Assembly: GCA_965206985.1 (NCBI GenBank)
Contig: CBDBLF010000011.1
Location: 271,730 to 335,729, forward strand
Direction: 5' to 3'
Source: Spirochaetota bacterium
Lineage (GTDB): Bacteria > Spirochaetota > Leptospiria > Turneriellales > CBDBES01
DNA: 64,000 bases
This document shows, in pieces, positions 12,035 through 37,751 of this stretch. The notes beneath the pieces are model-generated. The model saw nothing but the letters and a program-made list of their open reading frames with translations, did not search any database and was not told where the DNA came from. Within the stretch, counting starts at the first letter, position 1. Each line of letters opens with the position of its first letter. The position numbers were made by a program, and so were the translations under genes.

Positions 12035-12142
12035 GCGGTGGTGGAATAAGTGATTATTGTCATCACTTAGTCGTCGTCAATAATTACCGCAATATAGGGA
12101 GAGCTATATGTCAGGTGTAGAAATAATTTGGTCGTGTCATAT

Positions 12143-12907
12143 TTAATCAAAGTTTCTATTTGCGATGAATAATTCTTGTATAGACCACTTATGATTCGTC
12201 ATTTCTGTAGCCATTGCTGGGGTGATTTGAATTGGTTTTCCTCCCTCATACTCAGCTAGACTTGAATGTGGAAGGCAGAGATTGTAATAATTAGCAACAA
12301 AAGAATTATGCCCCTGCATATATTTGAATTTTTTTGAAAAACCCTGACTTTTACGCTCTATTCTATGATTGTGTTGGCGAAGAGTCAAATTATTCCTTTC
12401 TACAGCAAAGGTGTTCATCTGATGACTTACTGAAGAGTTTGCAATATATTCATCTAGTAGCTTTTGATCACCAAAGATTAGAGATTTGTCAACTTCCTTA
12501 CATCTCCCTTTTTCTATTCTCTTAATTATTTGCCCATAACATAGAGATTTGGGTGATTAAAGCTTTCTAGTCATTGAGTCAAATTTACCATAAACTGAAA
12601 GAATGGCATCACTATATCCCTCATATCCATCAGAGGTAATCAAGAATTTATCTTCCCTCTTTGGCTTACTTCTTGTTTTTACCTTGGTCAGTAACTTTCT
12701 AGCATTCACTGAGGTCCTCTTGCCTGTTATATGCGCTAAAATGAGCTTTTCTACAGGCAATACTGCAGTAAAAGTCCAGATATCCCCTATTTCATCACTT
12801 AATCGCTCAGTCTCTGATAGATTGTATTGTTTTTTAAAGACAAAACCCCAATGCTCGTCTAATTGAATTTCATTGAAAGACAGGTTTTTGTATATATTTT
12901 TTTTCAA
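12143..12907 (-). pseudogene. InsB-like DDE domain split by a nonsense codon
   Basis: QLDEHWGFV, TSDGY, VERNNLTLRQ. TAA at 12557-12559 where the copy at 36501-37265 has CAA. Confidence 0.85.
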
Positions 12908-13247
12908 CTTTTAGTGAATCTTCACCTGCTGCTTTAACCCAAGCAAGAACTGTATCCTTGCTGATACCAAAGACTCTTCCGGTAGCTCTAATGCCACAGC
13001 CCTCAACTGTGTTTTGTAATACCCGAGTAATGGTTTCTTTGCTTTTCTTGCGACGAAAAAAAATAGTGCCTTTATTCTCTGAAAAGCATCTACCACAAGC
13101 GGTGCACTTTAAATAGGCTATTTGTTTGTACTTACCAGACATATAAGCAAAGCGCACATTTCCTTCATTTACCTTATGATACTTATGGCAGTCTGTATTT
13201 TGACAGCTAAAACCACTTGTATCAAAGGTATATTTTCTTTTGTTCAT
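12870..13247 (-). CDS. InsA-like Zn-finger/HTH protein
   Basis: CQNTDC...CTACGRCF...EGCGIRATGRVFGISKDTV; A8 run in the overlap with insB (-1 frameshift site). Confidence 0.85.
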   Translation of the reverse strand: MNKRKYTFDTSGFSCQNTDCHKYHKVNEGNVRFAYMSGKYKQIAYLKCTACGRCFSENKGTIFFRRKKSKETITRVLQNTVEGCGIRATGRVFGISKDTVLAWVKAAGEDSLKVEKKYIQKPVFQ

Positions 13248-13336
13248 AATGAGACATAACCTTAATTTAAGGGAGATAAGTCAATTCCTTTTTTAATTGG
13301 AAACTTTGATTAAATATGACACGACCAATAATTTTG

Positions 13337-13401
13337 GGTAAATAGTTGTTGTCAGAATGTAAGCCAGTTTTTTATTTGTAATAAAATTTACTTATTAGGG
13401 G
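13337..13401 (+). repeat. 65-bp leader repeat, copy 2
   Basis: Near-identical to 11254-11318; precedes the gene at 13411. Confidence 0.9.
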
Positions 13402-14743: not shown

Positions 14744-14824
14744 CCGACAAATAAACACTTATCGGACAATTTGTAATTTAGCGGACAGTTCGACCTTGAC
14801 TTTTCTCTTGAGAGAGGCTATATT
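14744..14824 (+). promoter_or_regulatory. Candidate late promoter 1 with phased GACA boxes
   Basis: GACA at 14746, 14765, 14784; TTGACT (14796)-17-TATATT; repeated at 21106-21186. Confidence 0.75.
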
Positions 14825-16180: not shown

Positions 16181-17601
16181 CAGAAAATCCGAAAGAAACC
16201 AGTACTATTTTAGAAAATTTTCTAATTGAGGGTGAAAAACATTTTTCTAAAAGCAGAAGTCAAAATGTTTTCATCAAAGGCCGTTTAGATGGTGCTTCCT
16301 CTCTGGGGGCATTTGCAAGTTATATTGACCCTAGCTTTATTACGCCTCATCACATCCAACTTTTAATAGAGAAACTGGAAGCAATCGAAACAGGGGAAAT
16401 AAAGCGGTTGATTATCAACATGCCTCCGAGGCATGGAAAGAGCCAACTGGTCAGTCGTATTTTTCCTGTTTGGTGTTTGGGGAGAAAACTGAATCGTCAA
16501 ATCATACTCGCCAGCTATGCGGCCAGGCTCGCTCAACGACTTACTCGCTGGGGCAGAGACAAAGCTGAATCAAAGGAAGTGAAAGATATTTTTCCAAATT
16601 TGCAAATTAGAAAAGACGTTCGAGCGAGTTATGAATACCAAAATACTAAAGGTGGTCTTGTTTTGGGGGCGGGTGTAGATGGTCCGATTACAGGCTCTGG
16701 GGCTGATATTGCCATTATTGATGACCCATATAAAGATTACCACGAAGCCAAGTCAGAACTTATCTCTACGAATGTTTGGGATTGGTTTCGCTCGACACTA
16801 CTCACTAGGCTATCGCCAAAGGGAGTTGTGATCGTGGTGCATACCCGCTGGATGACCCACGACCTAACCGCACGCATACTAGAGCTAGAGCCAGAAAACT
16901 GGGAGGTGGTTAAACTACCTGCCATTAACCTAAAAGGCGAGGCACTCTGGCAAGAGAGGTTTCCTGTAAAAGAGCTCTTAAAAATTAGAAAGTCTTTAGG
17001 GGAGTCGCTTTTTCAAGCGATCTATCAACAAGAGCCGGTAGATATAACAGAGCGTCTTTTTGAGGAGCCTAGGTTTTGTGAGCCTCCTAAAGACTTAAAA
17101 ATCTTTGCCTACCTCGACCCAGCTTTTGGAGGTAAAGACTATTCGGCACTTACCATTGGTAGAGTAGGAAGAGAAGATAAAAATGAGTTTAGAATTTATA
17201 TCAAAGCAGGCTATATCTGGAATTCTCAAATCGATAAAACCTATAACCTAGTAGAGAAGTACTGCAAACAGGAAAATGTAACCACCTTGTATGTAGAAGC
17301 CAACCAAGCTCAAAGTGTTTTAAGCCATGAATTTAGAAAGCGTAACCTCTTTGTAAGAGATGTTAAAAATGTATCAAATAAACATCTACGAATTGTAAAC
17401 TATGTAAAGGTAAACTGGGATAAAATCTACTTTTCTAAGTCGGTTGACTCGGCTTATTTAAAACAGATTCTAAGTTATTCAGAGCATGCTTCTCATGACG
17501 ATGCACCCGACTCTTTGGCTGGCCTTATCCAAGCTTTAGGTAGAGGAGGTAGACCACTTTCGGCACGGTATTCTTTTCTCAGTCGGCTTCGTGGTTTTTA
17601 G
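16177..17601 (+). CDS. Terminase large subunit
   Basis: INMPPRHGKS, IIDDPYK, TRW, YLDPA, HDDAPDSL. Confidence 0.95.
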   Translation: MTENPKETSTILENFLIEGEKHFSKSRSQNVFIKGRLDGASSLGAFASYIDPSFITPHHIQLLIEKLEAIETGEIKRLIINMPPRHGKSQLVSRIFPVWCLGRKLNRQIILASYAARLAQRLTRWGRDKAESKEVKDIFPNLQIRKDVRASYEYQNTKGGLVLGAGVDGPITGSGADIAIIDDPYKDYHEAKSELISTNVWDWFRSTLLTRLSPKGVVIVVHTRWMTHDLTARILELEPENWEVVKLPAINLKGEALWQERFPVKELLKIRKSLGESLFQAIYQQEPVDITERLFEEPRFCEPPKDLKIFAYLDPAFGGKDYSALTIGRVGREDKNEFRIYIKAGYIWNSQIDKTYNLVEKYCKQENVTTLYVEANQAQSVLSHEFRKRNLFVRDVKNVSNKHLRIVNYVKVNWDKIYFSKSVDSAYLKQILSYSEHASHDDAPDSLAGLIQALGRGGRPLSARYSFLSRLRGF

Positions 17602-17602
17602 T

Positions 17603-19027
17603 ATGCTTGATTTAACAGGAGTCGCACAAAAAGGTAAAGAACAAAGAAAAAGAGTTGGTCGTTTTGATTCGCTCGCTTCACAAGTTCAAGGCAGGGGTAC
17701 CCGCAAAGACAAGCTACTGGGGCTTTCTCCATCTCACCATAGTATGCACCCCTCCGAAGCGAGGGCTTGGTTTTTTTCAAACGGTTTTGTTCAAAATATA
17801 ATTTCGGCACCGGCAGAAGACGCCACCAGAGAATGGATCACAATCACGACCAACAGAGACGACGACCTGAAAATAAATCGCCTCATAGAGAATCGTTTGG
17901 CGGAACTAGAAATTCAAAACAAACTAGAAGAGCTCATACGCTACATGAGAATATTTGAAGACGGGGGTTTTATGTATTTTGGTATTGATTCAAATCAGAT
18001 ACCCCATCGTGAAATCCTTAAAGAACCGATGCCTTCGAGAATACGTAAGATAGCATACATCAATGTTTTCTCTTCGGAACATGCAAGTCTGATACACCAA
18101 AATGGCTACGATCCATTAGCCAAAAACTACCATTCTTTCGATAGCTATATTTATGGAACACTGGTTCATGCAAGCCGTTTCTCGTGGATGGTGAATAACT
18201 ACTCTTTTGAGGAGCAAAGAGGTGTCTCTGTGATTGATACCATATTAGACGCTATAAAGGCACAAGATACCGCTCTCTGGTCGGTGACTTCTCTAATTAT
18301 GGAGATGTCGGTAAAGGTTTTCAAAAGTCCACAAACTAGAGATGATTCACCCGCTCAGTTGATGGAGTATTTAGAGCTTCTGCGAACCTCTCTTTCTACT
18401 CAATCGGTGGCAGCTCTAACCGAAGACGAATCTTTAGAGCGCCTCGAAATCAGTGGTTTGTCAGGTGGCGGCATCAAACCTCTTTTTGATTTTATCTTTG
18501 ATAATCTAGCCGGGCTTTCTCGCATACCCAAATCACGGCTGATGGGTCAGTCTCACGGGATCATTGGAGCTGGCCAATACGATTTGATTAGCTATTACGA
18601 TTCTATCGCAAAATTTCAGGAACTTAAAATGCGTCCTATTTTAGAAATTATCATTTCTCTGATTATCAAGGAAGAGCTGGGAGAAATTTACAAATGTTTA
18701 AATGGCGAAATTCATTCACTCGACTGGGAGTTTTGTTTTAAACCTCTTTGGCGACACACCGAAAAAGAACAGGCAGAGATAGAGCTTAGACAGGCTCAAG
18801 CAGATTCTTTATACGCTCAGAATGGAACGCTCTCTGGGCAAGATATCCGATCAAAAAGGTTTTCTGATTTAGAGGAGTTTAGCTCTTATGAGTCTGCTTC
18901 TGATTTGAGCAACACATCAGAGGCAGAAGAGAGGCTTGCAAAAGACTTATTTTTAGAAAAAGATAATTCATTTGAGGCAAACCAAGAAAACAAACACACA
19001 GGCTCTCTGACGGGTTTTGCAGTCTAA
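17603..19027 (+). CDS. Portal protein (DUF1073-like)
   Basis: PAEDATREW, IPKSRLMGQS..G...DLISYYDSI..FQE; follows terminase. Confidence 0.85.
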   Translation: MLDLTGVAQKGKEQRKRVGRFDSLASQVQGRGTRKDKLLGLSPSHHSMHPSEARAWFFSNGFVQNIISAPAEDATREWITITTNRDDDLKINRLIENRLAELEIQNKLEELIRYMRIFEDGGFMYFGIDSNQIPHREILKEPMPSRIRKIAYINVFSSEHASLIHQNGYDPLAKNYHSFDSYIYGTLVHASRFSWMVNNYSFEEQRGVSVIDTILDAIKAQDTALWSVTSLIMEMSVKVFKSPQTRDDSPAQLMEYLELLRTSLSTQSVAALTEDESLERLEISGLSGGGIKPLFDFIFDNLAGLSRIPKSRLMGQSHGIIGAGQYDLISYYDSIAKFQELKMRPILEIIISLIIKEELGEIYKCLNGEIHSLDWEFCFKPLWRHTEKEQAEIELRQAQADSLYAQNGTLSGQDIRSKRFSDLEEFSSYESASDLSNTSEAEERLAKDLFLEKDNSFEANQENKHTGSLTGFAV

Positions 19028-19136
19028 ACAGGGTAAATGTCCTACTTTATATTTTGGACAAATTGGACAGCACTTTGGACGCGGCTATGAGGGTCTTATG
19101 TATAAGGTTGGAAGTTTCCTAGCGATTTACTAAAAT

Positions 19137-20519
19137 ATGTATCCACTCGCCTTAGAACACGTTATTGAGCGTCTTCACGAAAGTGAATTTCTATTATTTG
19201 CGAAATCCTATCAGAAGCAAGTTTTAAACGCCGTTCAGCATTTCAAAGAAGAGACGGTGCAAAATGAAATAAAAAGTGTTCGAATCGATTCTGACCTTTT
19301 TCAAGTATTAGAAGGGCTGAAAGAGAAATCAAAAAGATATAAACCAAAAGCTCTTCTAACAAAACTCACGAACCAGTTTGGAGTGCTGGAGTCTTTTTCT
19401 CGTAGAATTTTAAAAACTGCTATAGGCAAAAATTCTGAGATGATAGAGCCGATTAATCTAAAACGCTCAAGTGCCATCACCAAAGAAATTTTAAAAGATG
19501 TCTCTCGGCAGAATGCAGAGTTGATTCAATCTCTCCAAGGCAAACATATCGATAAGTTGGCCAACATCGTTAGAGAAGGGGTTCTTCAAGGAAGATCAAA
19601 TGCCGAGCTTACCAAGAGCTTCAATAAGGCGTTGGGGGTAGATCGTCGCACGGCCAAGTTTTGGGGTCGTGATCAGGCTTCTAAGTTTTTTGGTCGTGTG
19701 AATTTTGTCAACCAAACATCAGCGGGATTTGAGGGCTATATTTGGCGGACGGTAAGAGATAACCGGCTAAGAGATACACATGCCGCCCTTGAGGGCACCT
19801 ACCATAAATGGTCGGAACCTCCAGAGATTCTTGTAAATGGCATAGTCAAGAGACTCCACACGGGGGAAGATTATAACTGCCGTTGTTTCCCAGAGCCTGC
19901 AGATTCTCCGGTTGAGGCTGAACGAAAATACATCCCTGCTCATTCTTTAGAAGCCATTCCAGAGATATCCAATACCGACATCAATACTTTTCTGGAGAAC
20001 CGTTTGGTAGACAATGTCTCTGACGAGGTGAGGCTTAGAAACCCATCTTTAGAATCAACGCATCTAAAAGCTATCTGGAATTATACAAACCCAAAAATTG
20101 CAAAAGAGTTAAATCGAGGCACCCGTGAAGGGAGTAGCACTTCTTTCAACAGAGCTTTCAAACGAGTGCTGGATGCCTCCCTTGCCAGACTACCCGACTA
20201 TGCAGGAGTTAGCTACCGTCATATCTTGGTAAAAGAGATGATTCTAGATTCATTTTTAAAAAAATATAAGAAAGATAAGGTTGTCACAGAGACGAGCTTT
20301 ATCTCTTCATCGAAAGGGGAACTCGACACCAAACACAAGCACCATAACATAAAACTGATCATAAAAGGCTTGACGGGTAAAGACATATCAGGTATGTCAA
20401 GAAAGCCAAAGGAGTTAGAGGTGCTGTTTCGAGCGAATACAAAATTTAGGGTGAGAAAAGTTCGTTCAGAAGAAACTCTAGCAAAGGTTTGGCTTGAAGA
20501 AGTAAATGCAGAAAATTAA
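19137..20519 (+). CDS. MuF/gp7 minor head protein fused to a C-terminal ADP-ribosyltransferase domain
   Basis: MuF: RDQASK..YIWRTVRDNRLRDTHAALEG..GEDYNCRC. ART: AIWNYT..LNR..YRH..FISSS..ELEVLF..TKFRV. Confidence 0.9.
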   Translation: MYPLALEHVIERLHESEFLLFAKSYQKQVLNAVQHFKEETVQNEIKSVRIDSDLFQVLEGLKEKSKRYKPKALLTKLTNQFGVLESFSRRILKTAIGKNSEMIEPINLKRSSAITKEILKDVSRQNAELIQSLQGKHIDKLANIVREGVLQGRSNAELTKSFNKALGVDRRTAKFWGRDQASKFFGRVNFVNQTSAGFEGYIWRTVRDNRLRDTHAALEGTYHKWSEPPEILVNGIVKRLHTGEDYNCRCFPEPADSPVEAERKYIPAHSLEAIPEISNTDINTFLENRLVDNVSDEVRLRNPSLESTHLKAIWNYTNPKIAKELNRGTREGSSTSFNRAFKRVLDASLARLPDYAGVSYRHILVKEMILDSFLKKYKKDKVVTETSFISSSKGELDTKHKHHNIKLIIKGLTGKDISGMSRKPKELEVLFRANTKFRVRKVRSEETLAKVWLEEVNAEN

Positions 20520-20525
20520 TCACAT

Positions 20526-20972
20526 ATGTTAGAAGTCACGAGCGAAGAAGACCTTGAGGCAGAAAGAGTCTTTGCTGAATCAGACGAGCATGAACGCATA
20601 GCCGAAGAGAAACGCGAGGCACATTTTGCTTCTTTGTCAGAAGAACAGCGACAAGAGATTTTAAAATTTGAGCGTCAAGGAGACTACGAACTCCATGACA
20701 GCATACGACAGAATTGGTTTAACTGGACACATCAACAACGTAAAGAAGAAATTTACAGCAGTCTTCAAACTAGCGATAAATTTCAAGATGGCTTTTATGA
20801 TTCTCGTCCTCCTCAAGCAGAGATTATTATGGCCAAGATGTTTCCAGAAGACAGGGTCTACTACATAAAAGAGTATAGAGATTATATAGAGGGTCTGAGA
20901 GATGTTGACCCCCACGACTGGTTAGCCAAAGATATGCAAAAGTTGCTGGACGATCTTCTAAAAGATGGGTGA
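20526..20972 (+). CDS. Acidic protein, candidate immunity protein for MuF-ART
   Basis: 6 bp after the toxin gene; D/E-rich; no recognisable structural family. Confidence 0.55.
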   Translation: MLEVTSEEDLEAERVFAESDEHERIAEEKREAHFASLSEEQRQEILKFERQGDYELHDSIRQNWFNWTHQQRKEEIYSSLQTSDKFQDGFYDSRPPQAEIIMAKMFPEDRVYYIKEYRDYIEGLRDVDPHDWLAKDMQKLLDDLLKDG

Positions 20973-21105: not shown

Positions 21106-21186
21106 CAGACAAATTGACCATTATCGGACAGTTTGTAATTTATTGGACAGTTCGACCTTGACTATCCCATAAAAATACTCTATGGT
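21106..21186 (+). promoter_or_regulatory. Candidate late promoter 2 with phased GACA boxes
   Basis: GACA at 21108, 21127, 21146; TTGACT (21158)-17-TATGGT. Confidence 0.75.
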
Positions 21187-21211
21187 CTGGCTCAAACATA
21201 TGGGTCACAGA

Positions 21212-22408
21212 ATGCAAAGAGAATTACGCCGTGACATAGCGGTATTAGAGCCTGTCACAAAACATGTCGACGATGATGGTTTCTTACGAGCCAGACTCAA
21301 GATGGCAAAACCGGGAGTCTTTAATTATTTTCGTGGGAACGGCATTTCTCTTGAGGCCAAGCTCCCCGAAGAAATCCTTTCTATTTCTACCATGGATTCA
21401 GCAAAACGATCCCCCATTGCCGATGGGCATCCTCCAATTTCTGACTGCGATGGTCTAATTACTCCCGACAATTATTCTAAATATATCAAGGGTAGCCTAG
21501 GAGATTCAATTACAATTCAGAACGGTTATCTGGTTGGTGAAGAGACCGTTTTTGACAAGACACTTGCAGAAGATATTAAATCGGGTAAAAAAGCCGAAGT
21601 CTCTATTGGCTTCACGGCAGATATTGACCCTACGCCTGGGGAATATAATGGTGAACATTATGATGTTGCTCAACGGAATATTCGAATCAATCACATAGCC
21701 CACGTTGAAAAAGGGCGAGCAGGAAGCGACGTTAAGGCATTTTTTGACACATCGGAATCAGACGGTGTCCCCGTAACACGATTAGATAGCCGTGTAAGCG
21801 ACACGAATCAAATTAATCAAACTAAAAATAATGAAGGAGAGACTATGGATATGGATGAAAACTCACTCATAGAAAAAATTACAGCGGCGATTAAGTCGAT
21901 ATTTTCGGATAAAAAAAAAGGCAACTCAGAAACTTTGGATCAGCAAGAGGGTACAGCTGATTTTGAAAAAGAAAAGTTGCTTAAAGAAAACGAAGCCTTA
22001 AAGGCAAAGTTAGCAGAGAATGAAAAAAAAATGGAAGAAAGGCAAGACGCTCTTGAGCTTGACTCTAAAATTGAAGAGAGGCTTGAAATTATGAAAATGG
22101 CTCATTCTGTTTTAGATTCTTTTGACAGCAAATCTCTTTCAAATCAAGAAATCAAACTTAAGGTTATAGAGAAGGTATTACCTTTTTCAAATTCTGTAAG
22201 AATTGATTCACTGGATGATATGATGATCGATGCCCGATATGACGCAAGCTTTGAGCTTGCTAAAGAAAGGGCGATGCAATCAGAACATTTGCCTGCCAGC
22301 TCAGGTGGGGTTTACTTAGATGAAAATTTAATTTTAAAGAAGAGAGCTGAACGACTAAACTTGTTTGATCAAATTGAAGCAGAAGCCACAAAAGGAGGAA
22401 TATTATGA
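21212..22408 (+). CDS. DUF2213-like prohead protease/scaffold
   Basis: DDGFL..GVFNY, GHPP, EVSIGF, QRNIRINHIAHVEKGRAG; coiled-coil C-terminus. Start 21200 or 21212, since 21182 overlaps the -10. Confidence 0.85.
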   Translation: MQRELRRDIAVLEPVTKHVDDDGFLRARLKMAKPGVFNYFRGNGISLEAKLPEEILSISTMDSAKRSPIADGHPPISDCDGLITPDNYSKYIKGSLGDSITIQNGYLVGEETVFDKTLAEDIKSGKKAEVSIGFTADIDPTPGEYNGEHYDVAQRNIRINHIAHVEKGRAGSDVKAFFDTSESDGVPVTRLDSRVSDTNQINQTKNNEGETMDMDENSLIEKITAAIKSIFSDKKKGNSETLDQQEGTADFEKEKLLKENEALKAKLAENEKKMEERQDALELDSKIEERLEIMKMAHSVLDSFDSKSLSNQEIKLKVIEKVLPFSNSVRIDSLDDMMIDARYDASFELAKERAMQSEHLPASSGGVYLDENLILKKRAERLNLFDQIEAEATKGGIL

Positions 22409-35841: not shown

Positions 35842-36009
35842 AGATAACATGCAGGTCGCCCAAATGTCTATACCAGTCGCATCTTACGCAGAATTTTTAT
35901 CGCAAAACCTCTGATCAATTCATTTGGACTATAAAATCAACACCATTTAGCCCAACTTGGATGACCTAATCAAGACTTAACTGCACATAGCACTTTCTAG
36001 TAAAGTTCA

Positions 36010-36478
36010 TCTAATTGAATTTCATTGAAAGACAGGTTTTTGTATATATTTTTTTTCAACTTTTAGTGAATCTTCACCTGCTGCTTTAACCCAAGCAAGA
36101 ACTGTATCCTTGCTGATACCAAAGACTCTTCCGGTAGCTCTAATGCCACAGCCCTCAACTGTGTTTTGTAATACCCGAGTAATGGTTTCTTTGCTTTTCT
36201 TGCGACGAAAAAAAATAGTGCCTTTATTCTCTGAAAAGCATCTACCACAAGCGGTGCACTTTAAATAGGCTATTTGTTTGTACTTACCAGACATATAAGC
36301 AAAGCGCACATTTCCTTCATTTACCTTATGATACTTATGGCAGTCTGTATTTTGACAGCTAAAACCACTTGTATCAAAGGTATATTTTCTTTTGTTCATA
36401 ATGAGACATAACCTTAATTTAAGAGAGATAAGTCAATTCCTTTTTTAATTGGAAACTTTGATTAAATATGACACGACC
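36010..36478 (-). mobile_element. Truncated IS1-family copy (insA at 36022-36399 and one TIR only)
   Basis: Matches the insA end of the other copies; homology stops near 36010. Confidence 0.9.
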
Positions 36479-36487
36479 CAAAGTCAA

Positions 36488-37684
36488 GGTCGTGTCATAT
36501 TTAATCAAAGTTTCTATTTGCGATGAATAATTCTTGTATAGACCACTTATGATTCGTCATTTCTGTAGCCATTGCTGGGGTGATTTGAATTGGTTTTCCT
36601 CCCTCATACTCAGCTAGACTTGAATGTGGAAGGCAGAAATTGTAATAATTAGCAACAAAAGAATTATGCCCCTGCATATATTTGAATTTTTTTGAAAAAC
36701 CCTGACTTTTACGCTCTATTCTATGATTGTGTTGGCGAAGAGTCAAATTATTCCTTTCTACAGCAAAGGTGTTCATCTGATGACTTACTGAAGAGTTTGC
36801 AATATATTCATCTAGTAGCTTTTGATCACCAAAGATTAGAGATTTGTCAACTTCCTTACATCTCCCTTTTTCTATTCTCTTAATTATTTGCCCATAACAT
36901 AGAGATTTGGGTGATTGAAGCTTTCTAGTCATTGAGTCAAATTTACCATAAACTGAAAGAATGGCATCACTATATCCCTCATATCCATCAGAGGTAATCA
37001 AGAATTTATCTTCCCTCTTTGGCTTACTTCTTGTTTTTACCTTGGTCAGTAACTTTCTAGCATTCACTGAGGTCCTCTTGCCTGTTATATGCGCTAAAAT
37101 GAGCTTTTCTACAGGCAATACTGCAGTAAAAGTCCAGATATCCCCTATTTCATCACTTAATCGCTCAGTCTCTGATAGATTGTATTGTTTTTTAAAGACA
37201 AAACCCCAATGCTCGTCTAATTGAATTTCATTGAAAGACAGGTTTTTGTATATATTTTTTTTCAACTTTTAGTGAATCTTCACCTGCTGCTTTAACCCAA
37301 GCAAGAACTGTATCCTTGCTGATACCAAAGACTCTTCCGGTAGCTCTAATGCCACAGCCCTCAACTGTGTTTTGTAATACCCGAGTAATGGTTTCTTTGC
37401 TTTTCTTGCGACGAAAAAAAATAGTGCCTTTATTCTCTGAAAAGCATCTACCACAAGCGGTGCACTTTAAATAGGCTATTTGTTTGTACTTACCAGACAT
37501 ATAAGCAAAGCGCACATTTCCTTCATTTACCTTATGATACTTATGGCAGTCTGTATTTTGACAGCTAAAACCACTTGTATCAAAGGTATATTTTCTTTTG
37601 TTCATAATGAGACATAACCTTAATTTAAGAGAGATAAGTCAATTCCTTTTTTAATTGGAAACTTTGATTAAATATGACACGACC
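36488..37684 (-). mobile_element. IS1-family element, intact copy (1197 bp)
   Basis: Same TIRs; 9-bp TSD CAAAGTCAA; insA 37228-37605 and open insB 36501-37265. Confidence 0.92.
36501..37605 (-). CDS. IS1-family transposase InsAB (via -1 frameshift at A8)
   Basis: Zn-finger/HTH ORF overlapping a DDE ORF in the -1 frame at GAAAAAAAAT. Confidence 0.85.
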
Positions 37685-37751
37685 CAAAGTCAATCCCTAA
37701 TAAATCTTGACAAATACTAGATACCAAATAGAGTGGTCGATGGGTTGAGTA

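Follow-up and report, generated by a model that had tools for sequence, protein, structure and literature searches.

The closest described counterpart of the locus analyzed here is Bxa, a MuF-type ADP-ribosyltransferase (MuF-ART) of a Bacteroides stercoris prophage which, according to the accessible part of the original study, is antibacterial and arginine-directed, is bound and blocked by Bsi, and is reversed in its effect by BAH (PMC11699363). MuF-ART fusions are described as common in the available text of PMC9503650, and the accessible portion of a survey of 191 MuF toxins reports that 14% are ARTs, that 89.4% have a small downstream ORF, and that a partner without a family is the usual case (PMC5576092). 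The same portion gives 1-2 portal-bound copies of Gp7 per SPP1 capsid, mentions the T4 ARTs as injected, and presents the injection of MuF toxins as a hypothesis. The roles of MuF toxins in infection are little settled, and few of them (Apk2, Bxa, and EFV) have been characterized. The novelty claimed when the present pair was first annotated was overstated, because Bxa-Bsi, in which a binding protein without enzymatic activity confers immunity to a MuF-ART, had already been characterized; MuF-ART toxins and family-less partners are already known, and the pair is a further example of a known toxin-antidote class, of which it leaves the general picture unchanged.

The pair lies in a 64,000-nucleotide stretch of a spirochaete genome (the window, by which we mean the whole stretch of DNA analyzed). 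It has in common with Bxa-Bsi-BAH a MuF N-terminus, a C-terminal ART, a position among the head-morphogenesis genes of a temperate phage, and a small adjacent gene for a seemingly non-enzymatic product. On the other hand, the window protein has 460 aa and no ARH was found in its genome, whereas Bxa has 869 aa and is accompanied by the ARH eraser BAH (accessible part of PMC11699363). The initial annotation had placed the pair in the MuF polymorphic toxin class, and this holds: with MuF1-type toxins such as EFV, as presented in the available parts of PMC5576092 and PMC3482391, it shares PF04233, a post-portal gene, a C-terminal toxin that varies among relatives, and a small downstream ORF without a recognizable domain. 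It differs from them in residing in a spirochaete transposable phage, the nearest kin of which have a HExxH tail instead. A term search in the accessible text of PMC8705779, which deals with these spirochaete prophages, gave no occurrence of MuF, toxin, or ADP. In the mostly open-access literature searched, neither the 148-aa partner nor MuF toxins of spirochaete transposable phages came up as the subject of any paper; the supplements to PMC5576092 and PMC11699363 may list spirochaete MuF-ARTs.

The MuF-ART gene in its prophage

The Mu-like prophage occupies about 3.6-36 kb of the window and is nearly intact, with family matches for transposase, transposition ATPase, Gam, repressor, endolysin, terminase, capsid, sheath, tape measure, and baseplate; every head, tail, and transposition gene checked is open and family-matched. 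Among named records, the closest MuF proteins come from MAGs labelled Leptospiraceae. In the head module, all on the forward strand, the 460-aa MuF-ART gene (19137-20519) lies directly 3' of the portal gene (17591-19027; PF06381, E 6.6e-62), and the ORF calls leave a gap of 6 nt before the 148-aa acidic ORF (20526-20972), as annotated at the outset. The DUF2213 head maturation protease/scaffold gene (21182-22408, family match) comes next. The letters around the ART stop and the partner start showed no difference in contigs from two public runs (two samples of one study, possibly including the source sample), which rules out an assembly error at the junction. Contig depth, which does not equal copy number, was 55-59 for window-specific and 32-34 for paralog pieces in run X1, and 4.3 and 4.7, respectively, in run X3. 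The segment 15895-19100, with terminase and portal, has a 99.9% duplicate at G000:C11:225127-228332 that ends just before the MuF start, and the segment 34611-36009 recurs at the end of contig C19.

The MuF1 domain (PF04233, residues 140-250, 19554-19886; Pfam E 5.8e-14, TIGR01641 E 3.7e-14) ends at GEDYNCRC (19863-19886), just where it had been read by eye, and is followed by an ART domain (PF01129, residues 304-457, 20046-20507; E 9.2e-10), both scoring over the curated Pfam cut-offs. The full R-S-E triad that had been claimed is there, with R361 in YRH (20214-20222), S390-S392 in FISSS (20298-20312), and E426-x-E428 in ELE (20412-20420); R361, S390, and E428 do not vary across the 17 rows of an ART alignment, and E426 is present in the MuF-ART. 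The E-x-E motif is a marker of arginine specificity in ARTs. The best Foldseek match of the domain model (pLDDT 89.6) is the antibacterial arginine-directed toxin Tre1 of Serratia (6dre_B; TM 0.80, E 7.7e-13, 23% identity), and the sequence matches include the host-directed ARTs XopAI and Vis. The MuF tail is thereby predicted, from motif and model, to be an arginine-directed R-S-E ADP-ribosyltransferase. The domain is strongly basic (pI 10.0, net charge +14). Although the ART fold is shared with the Tre1-Tri1 pair (6dre, 6drh), the window ART is carried on a MuF protein and its partner has no ARH match, whereas Tre1 is an effector of type VI secretion and Tri1 belongs to the ARH family of enzymes. 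T4 Alt resembles the window toxin in concept only, as a capsid-delivered arginine-directed ART; it belongs to a virulent phage and has no MuF fusion, and we know of no cognate immunity gene for it.

The nearest ART domains, at 27-35% identity, lie in head proteins of unrelated phages, and the phages with the closest ART relatives have free-living bacteria as hosts; a word search and a single-sequence viral scan with the ART region gave no matches. These closest sequences come from Bradleyvirinae (Xoo-sp2, AAT-1, PaMx28, and Elanor) and from gut phage MT835752, which have the same order of portal, MuF-ART, and small ORF. Their MuF-ARTs are longer (about 1,130-1,200 aa, or 546 aa), and their downstream ORFs of 85-101 aa have no significant match to the 148-aa partner.

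The pair had been described as sitting just before a second late promoter. A 43-bp motif with exactly two occurrences, both on the forward strand (0 matches in 100 shuffles), does lie at that place (21121-21163, with GGACA repeats, ahead of the protease-capsid genes), and we infer its role as a promoter; this copy is a likely late promoter or activator site. The other copy (14759-14801), ahead of the holin-terminase-portal-MuF genes, likely drives the transcript that holds the pair. Just 5' of the MuF gene, three GGACA/GGACG repeats like those of the motif (19056-19081) are possibly a separate activator site for toxin and partner. Sigma-70-like sites for an internal MuF promoter numbered 19 against 14.1 +/- 3.3 expected, not clearly over chance.

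The 148-aa partner

The partner (20526-20972, forward strand) has a pI of 4.57 and a net charge of -18, opposite to that of the ART domain, and exceeds in length most of the ORFs observed next to ARTs (60-101 aa). Its single-sequence model is all-helical and of low confidence (pLDDT 59.3), and fold searches with this model returned generic three-helix or helical-bundle matches only (Z < 8). The statement that it looks like neither an ARH hydrolase nor a macrodomain agrees with the profile searches, since it matches neither PF03747, a model of 287 positions, nor PF01661. The genome is 93% complete, and a search of it for ARH and Macro genes found neither, so that no eraser candidate emerged. 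Nothing in Pfam exceeded its cut-off, including a match to MgtE_N (E 0.0034), and no Imm family appeared at E <= 0.1; PHROGs, NCBIfam, and PADLOC gave no matches and no Imm family. The Pfam copy searched presumably included Imm41. That family is listed for Tox-ART-RSE in the available part of PMC3482391.

A word search of 5.8 billion proteins returned two matches, both in the same genome, and no relative appeared in pattern scans of the genome, metagenome, and viral contigs, in the phage collection, in the ESM Atlas, or in 40 relatives. Among 189 other genomes of the class, two weak matches (E 0.002-0.004 per genome) lie within unrelated long ORFs and are taken as chance. The partner is thus provisionally without a relative outside its genome; these searches were word-based or narrow, and distant relatives may exist. 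Two candidate likenesses were rejected, one to the 85-aa partner of the gut-phage ART (BLASTP E 0.06, hhalign probability 1.4%, different register), and the other to the 60-71-aa ART-adjacent ORFs of other genomes of the class, despite a forward E of 0.006 in a small set. Profiles of the latter placed no partner copy among their top 14 of 4929 genome ORFs, and the resemblance does not go beyond a generic helix-capping pattern.

Two further copies occur in the same genome, on contigs C25 and C7, so that the partner follows an ART 3' end in three of three copies; it was not seen without an ART sequence, although the copies belong to one genome and are physically linked and are thus not independent tests. 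On C25, the MuF-ART has three lesions (a frame change, an IS, and a stop) and the 155-aa partner is open, whereas C7 retains only the last 46 ART codons and a partner interrupted by an IS. The copies are 68-72% identical to each other, with dN/dS values of 0.31, 0.37, and 0.22 for the three pairs, and in none of the pairs did pN/pS reach 1 in any of 2000 bootstraps. Because diverged copies retain such ratios, which speak of past selection and not of present use, the 148-aa ORF is a real gene under purifying selection. Survival of the C25 partner as orphan immunity is not supported, since an IS interrupts the C7 partner and, by a rough hand estimate, it would not be unlikely for a 465-bp gene to stay intact by chance.

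In the C25 and C7 copies, a GGAGGAGG ribosome site precedes the partner start, which itself overlaps the stop of the ART. The window copy is without a strong site of this type, and near the point where translation starts in the paralogs it has an out-of-frame ATG opening an 8-codon ORF (20507-20533) that overlaps the partner start. These two features make translation of the window partner uncertain, and it would depend on ribosomes re-initiating once past the ART stop. A divergent block (20439-20618, forward strand) spans the ART end and the first part of the partner; it is 48-72% identical to the two paralogs, as opposed to 80-98% for the blocks on either side, and in the gut-phage family the corresponding parts likewise diverge as one block. 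As contiguous DNA can change in a single recombination event, we do not read this joint change as co-evolution; one recombination tract may explain it.

Exchange of tails and small genes among related phages

The survey of MuF genes covered 77 loci, of which 18 rows, corresponding to 17 distinct contigs with several near-duplicates, have the closest head modules (portal identity of at least 40%). The ART tail and the 148-aa partner are absent from all 17. A HExxH tail followed by a 57-81-aa ORF is found in 14 of them, a third tail type followed by a 97-aa ORF in one, and a short MuF without a small ORF in two. The HExxH tails (loci L085, L086, L110, L114, L125, L152, L007, and kin) read as zincin-like, with a weak LPD1 match in four of four tested, one of which is over the cut-off. 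The usual MuF of spirochaete-type transposable phages carries this HExxH tail and precedes a 57-81-aa helical ORF without a Pfam family. In a tree of MuF N-termini (21 hand-chosen rows), the window sequence nests in the group with the closest head modules (support 100/97), and its sister, a MuF truncated by the contig, has a tail similar to the third type (support 96/92). This third type has no Pfam match over the cut-off, and at every occurrence seen a partner family of its own follows it (E 1e-10 to 1e-28 among four partners). Since relatives hold other pairs of tail and small ORF in the same slot, toxin and partner have likely been exchanged as one cassette, and the comparison of MuF C-termini strengthens the immunity reading. 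It also reveals polymorphic MuF toxins in transposable phages of Leptospira-like spirochaetes.

Remnants of a second MuF-type cassette lie about 840 bp from the C7 partner copy (G000:C7:20047-21521, reverse strand), as tandem toxin-tip-like pieces with acidic ORFs of about 110 aa and no Pfam family over the cut-off. In a relative (G002, locus L017), the C-terminus of a portal-MuF fusion and its partner share 56% and 47% identity, respectively, with these pieces and ORFs, which are also related to tail and partner at L150 and L015 and appear to represent an unnamed toxin-immunity family of these phages. Stand-alone ART genes, each followed by a 63-79-aa acidic ORF, occur elsewhere in the class (L162, L166, and L167, in G182, G189, and G185), with a tandem array of ART and partner pieces at L162.

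Readings of the pair

We consider it probable, from sequence, models, and analogy, that the pair is a MuF polymorphic toxin with an R-S-E ART and a binding immunity protein, like Bxa-Bsi. Both proteins would be made from the late head operon, where the acidic partner would bind the basic enzyme, block it, and shield the producing cell during virion assembly. The MuF-ART is likely packaged in the phage head and delivered with the DNA, and one or two molecules would enter the next cell without the partner and, at such a low dose, may modify proteins of the host and so slow it or its defences. Such low-dose modification is favored over a killing mechanism that discriminates between lysogens and non-lysogens. 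The killing of non-lysogens raised in the initial annotation would require the partner to be made from a silent prophage, yet its gene sits in the late head operon and no separate promoter rises over chance, so this reading is disfavored; the suggestion that the partner is a substrate mimic gained no support over plain active-site blocking.

The partner could instead have another function beside an active ART, as an assembly helper or as immunity to a different toxin, which we regard as unlikely. A small ORF also follows 21 of 52 short MuFs, and at the Bxa locus one of two non-enzymatic candidates, BACSTE_RS09440, lies beside the toxin without conferring protection (accessible part of PMC11699363). 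However, a small ORF adjoins each of the 24 complete long-tailed MuFs (redundant loci included in both counts), and a function unrelated to the ART fits poorly with a gene that is missing from all 17 closest head modules, where other tails have other small genes, that begins within the ART stop in two copies, and that belongs to a genome with no ARH or Macro gene found. At loci with the nearest ART domains, a small ORF follows the ART in seven of seven annotated and 14 of 15 metagenomic cases, none of them matching the 148-aa partner.

Bacteria restricted to a host typically carry many copies of one IS element. In this genome an IS1-like element is present in 102 near-full-length copies (147 hits, 144 kb), and the ART might be aimed mainly at a eukaryotic host of the bacterium, as Bxa is in gut cells, with the partner only preventing self-intoxication. 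The likeness to XopAI and Vis would fit such a target, as would the modification of epithelial myosin by Bxa (PMC11699363) and the toxicity in yeast of EFV, the MuF-ART of Enterococcus faecalis V583 (PMC5576092), each according to the accessible part of its source. We nevertheless hold it to be quite unlikely, given that no export route other than lysis is evident, that phages of free-living bacteria carry the closest ART relatives, in their head proteins, and that the best fold match, Tre1, is antibacterial. It is very unlikely, in our view, that the ART fold serves chiefly as an NAD glycohydrolase, or has nucleic acid and not protein arginines as its main substrate: the domain is indeed very basic and ART-fold NAD(P) glycohydrolase toxins exist (available text of PMC13285283), but the E-x-E motif is intact, the closest likeness is to Tre1, XopAI, and Vis, and Bxa itself is arginine-directed. 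That the pair is a relic drifting in a prophage past making virions is scarcely credible, because although IS insertions enter and flank the prophage (12118-13354 inside it, and a nested pair at 36009-37700 at its right end) and two paralogous cassettes are broken, the checked phage genes are open, the ART triad is intact, and the partner bears the mark of selection, albeit past.

We put at about one in three the likelihood that the partner combines both properties, being a true inhibitor and representing a new family. A wider proposal is possible but doubtful, namely that the 148-aa protein is the first of a family of helical, non-enzymatic R-S-E ART inhibitors unrelated to Bsi, acting as sole protection without an eraser, that spirochaete transposable phages swap at least three toxin-antidote cassettes in the head slot, and that the three alleles may be allele-specific, with the intact partner of the decayed prophage as orphan immunity. 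If the partner does bind, it would be a new scaffold among protein inhibitors of the R-S-E ART fold. With an enzyme of about 160 aa, a partner of 148 aa, and natural partner alleles that are 68-72% identical, the pair is compact, and immunity and specificity are therefore directly testable in E. coli. The Bradleyvirinae MuF-ART head proteins (L020-L026 and L048-L059) all precede one conserved family of ORFs of about 90 aa with no Pfam match, and as cultured phages exist, that pair is easier to test than the one in the window.
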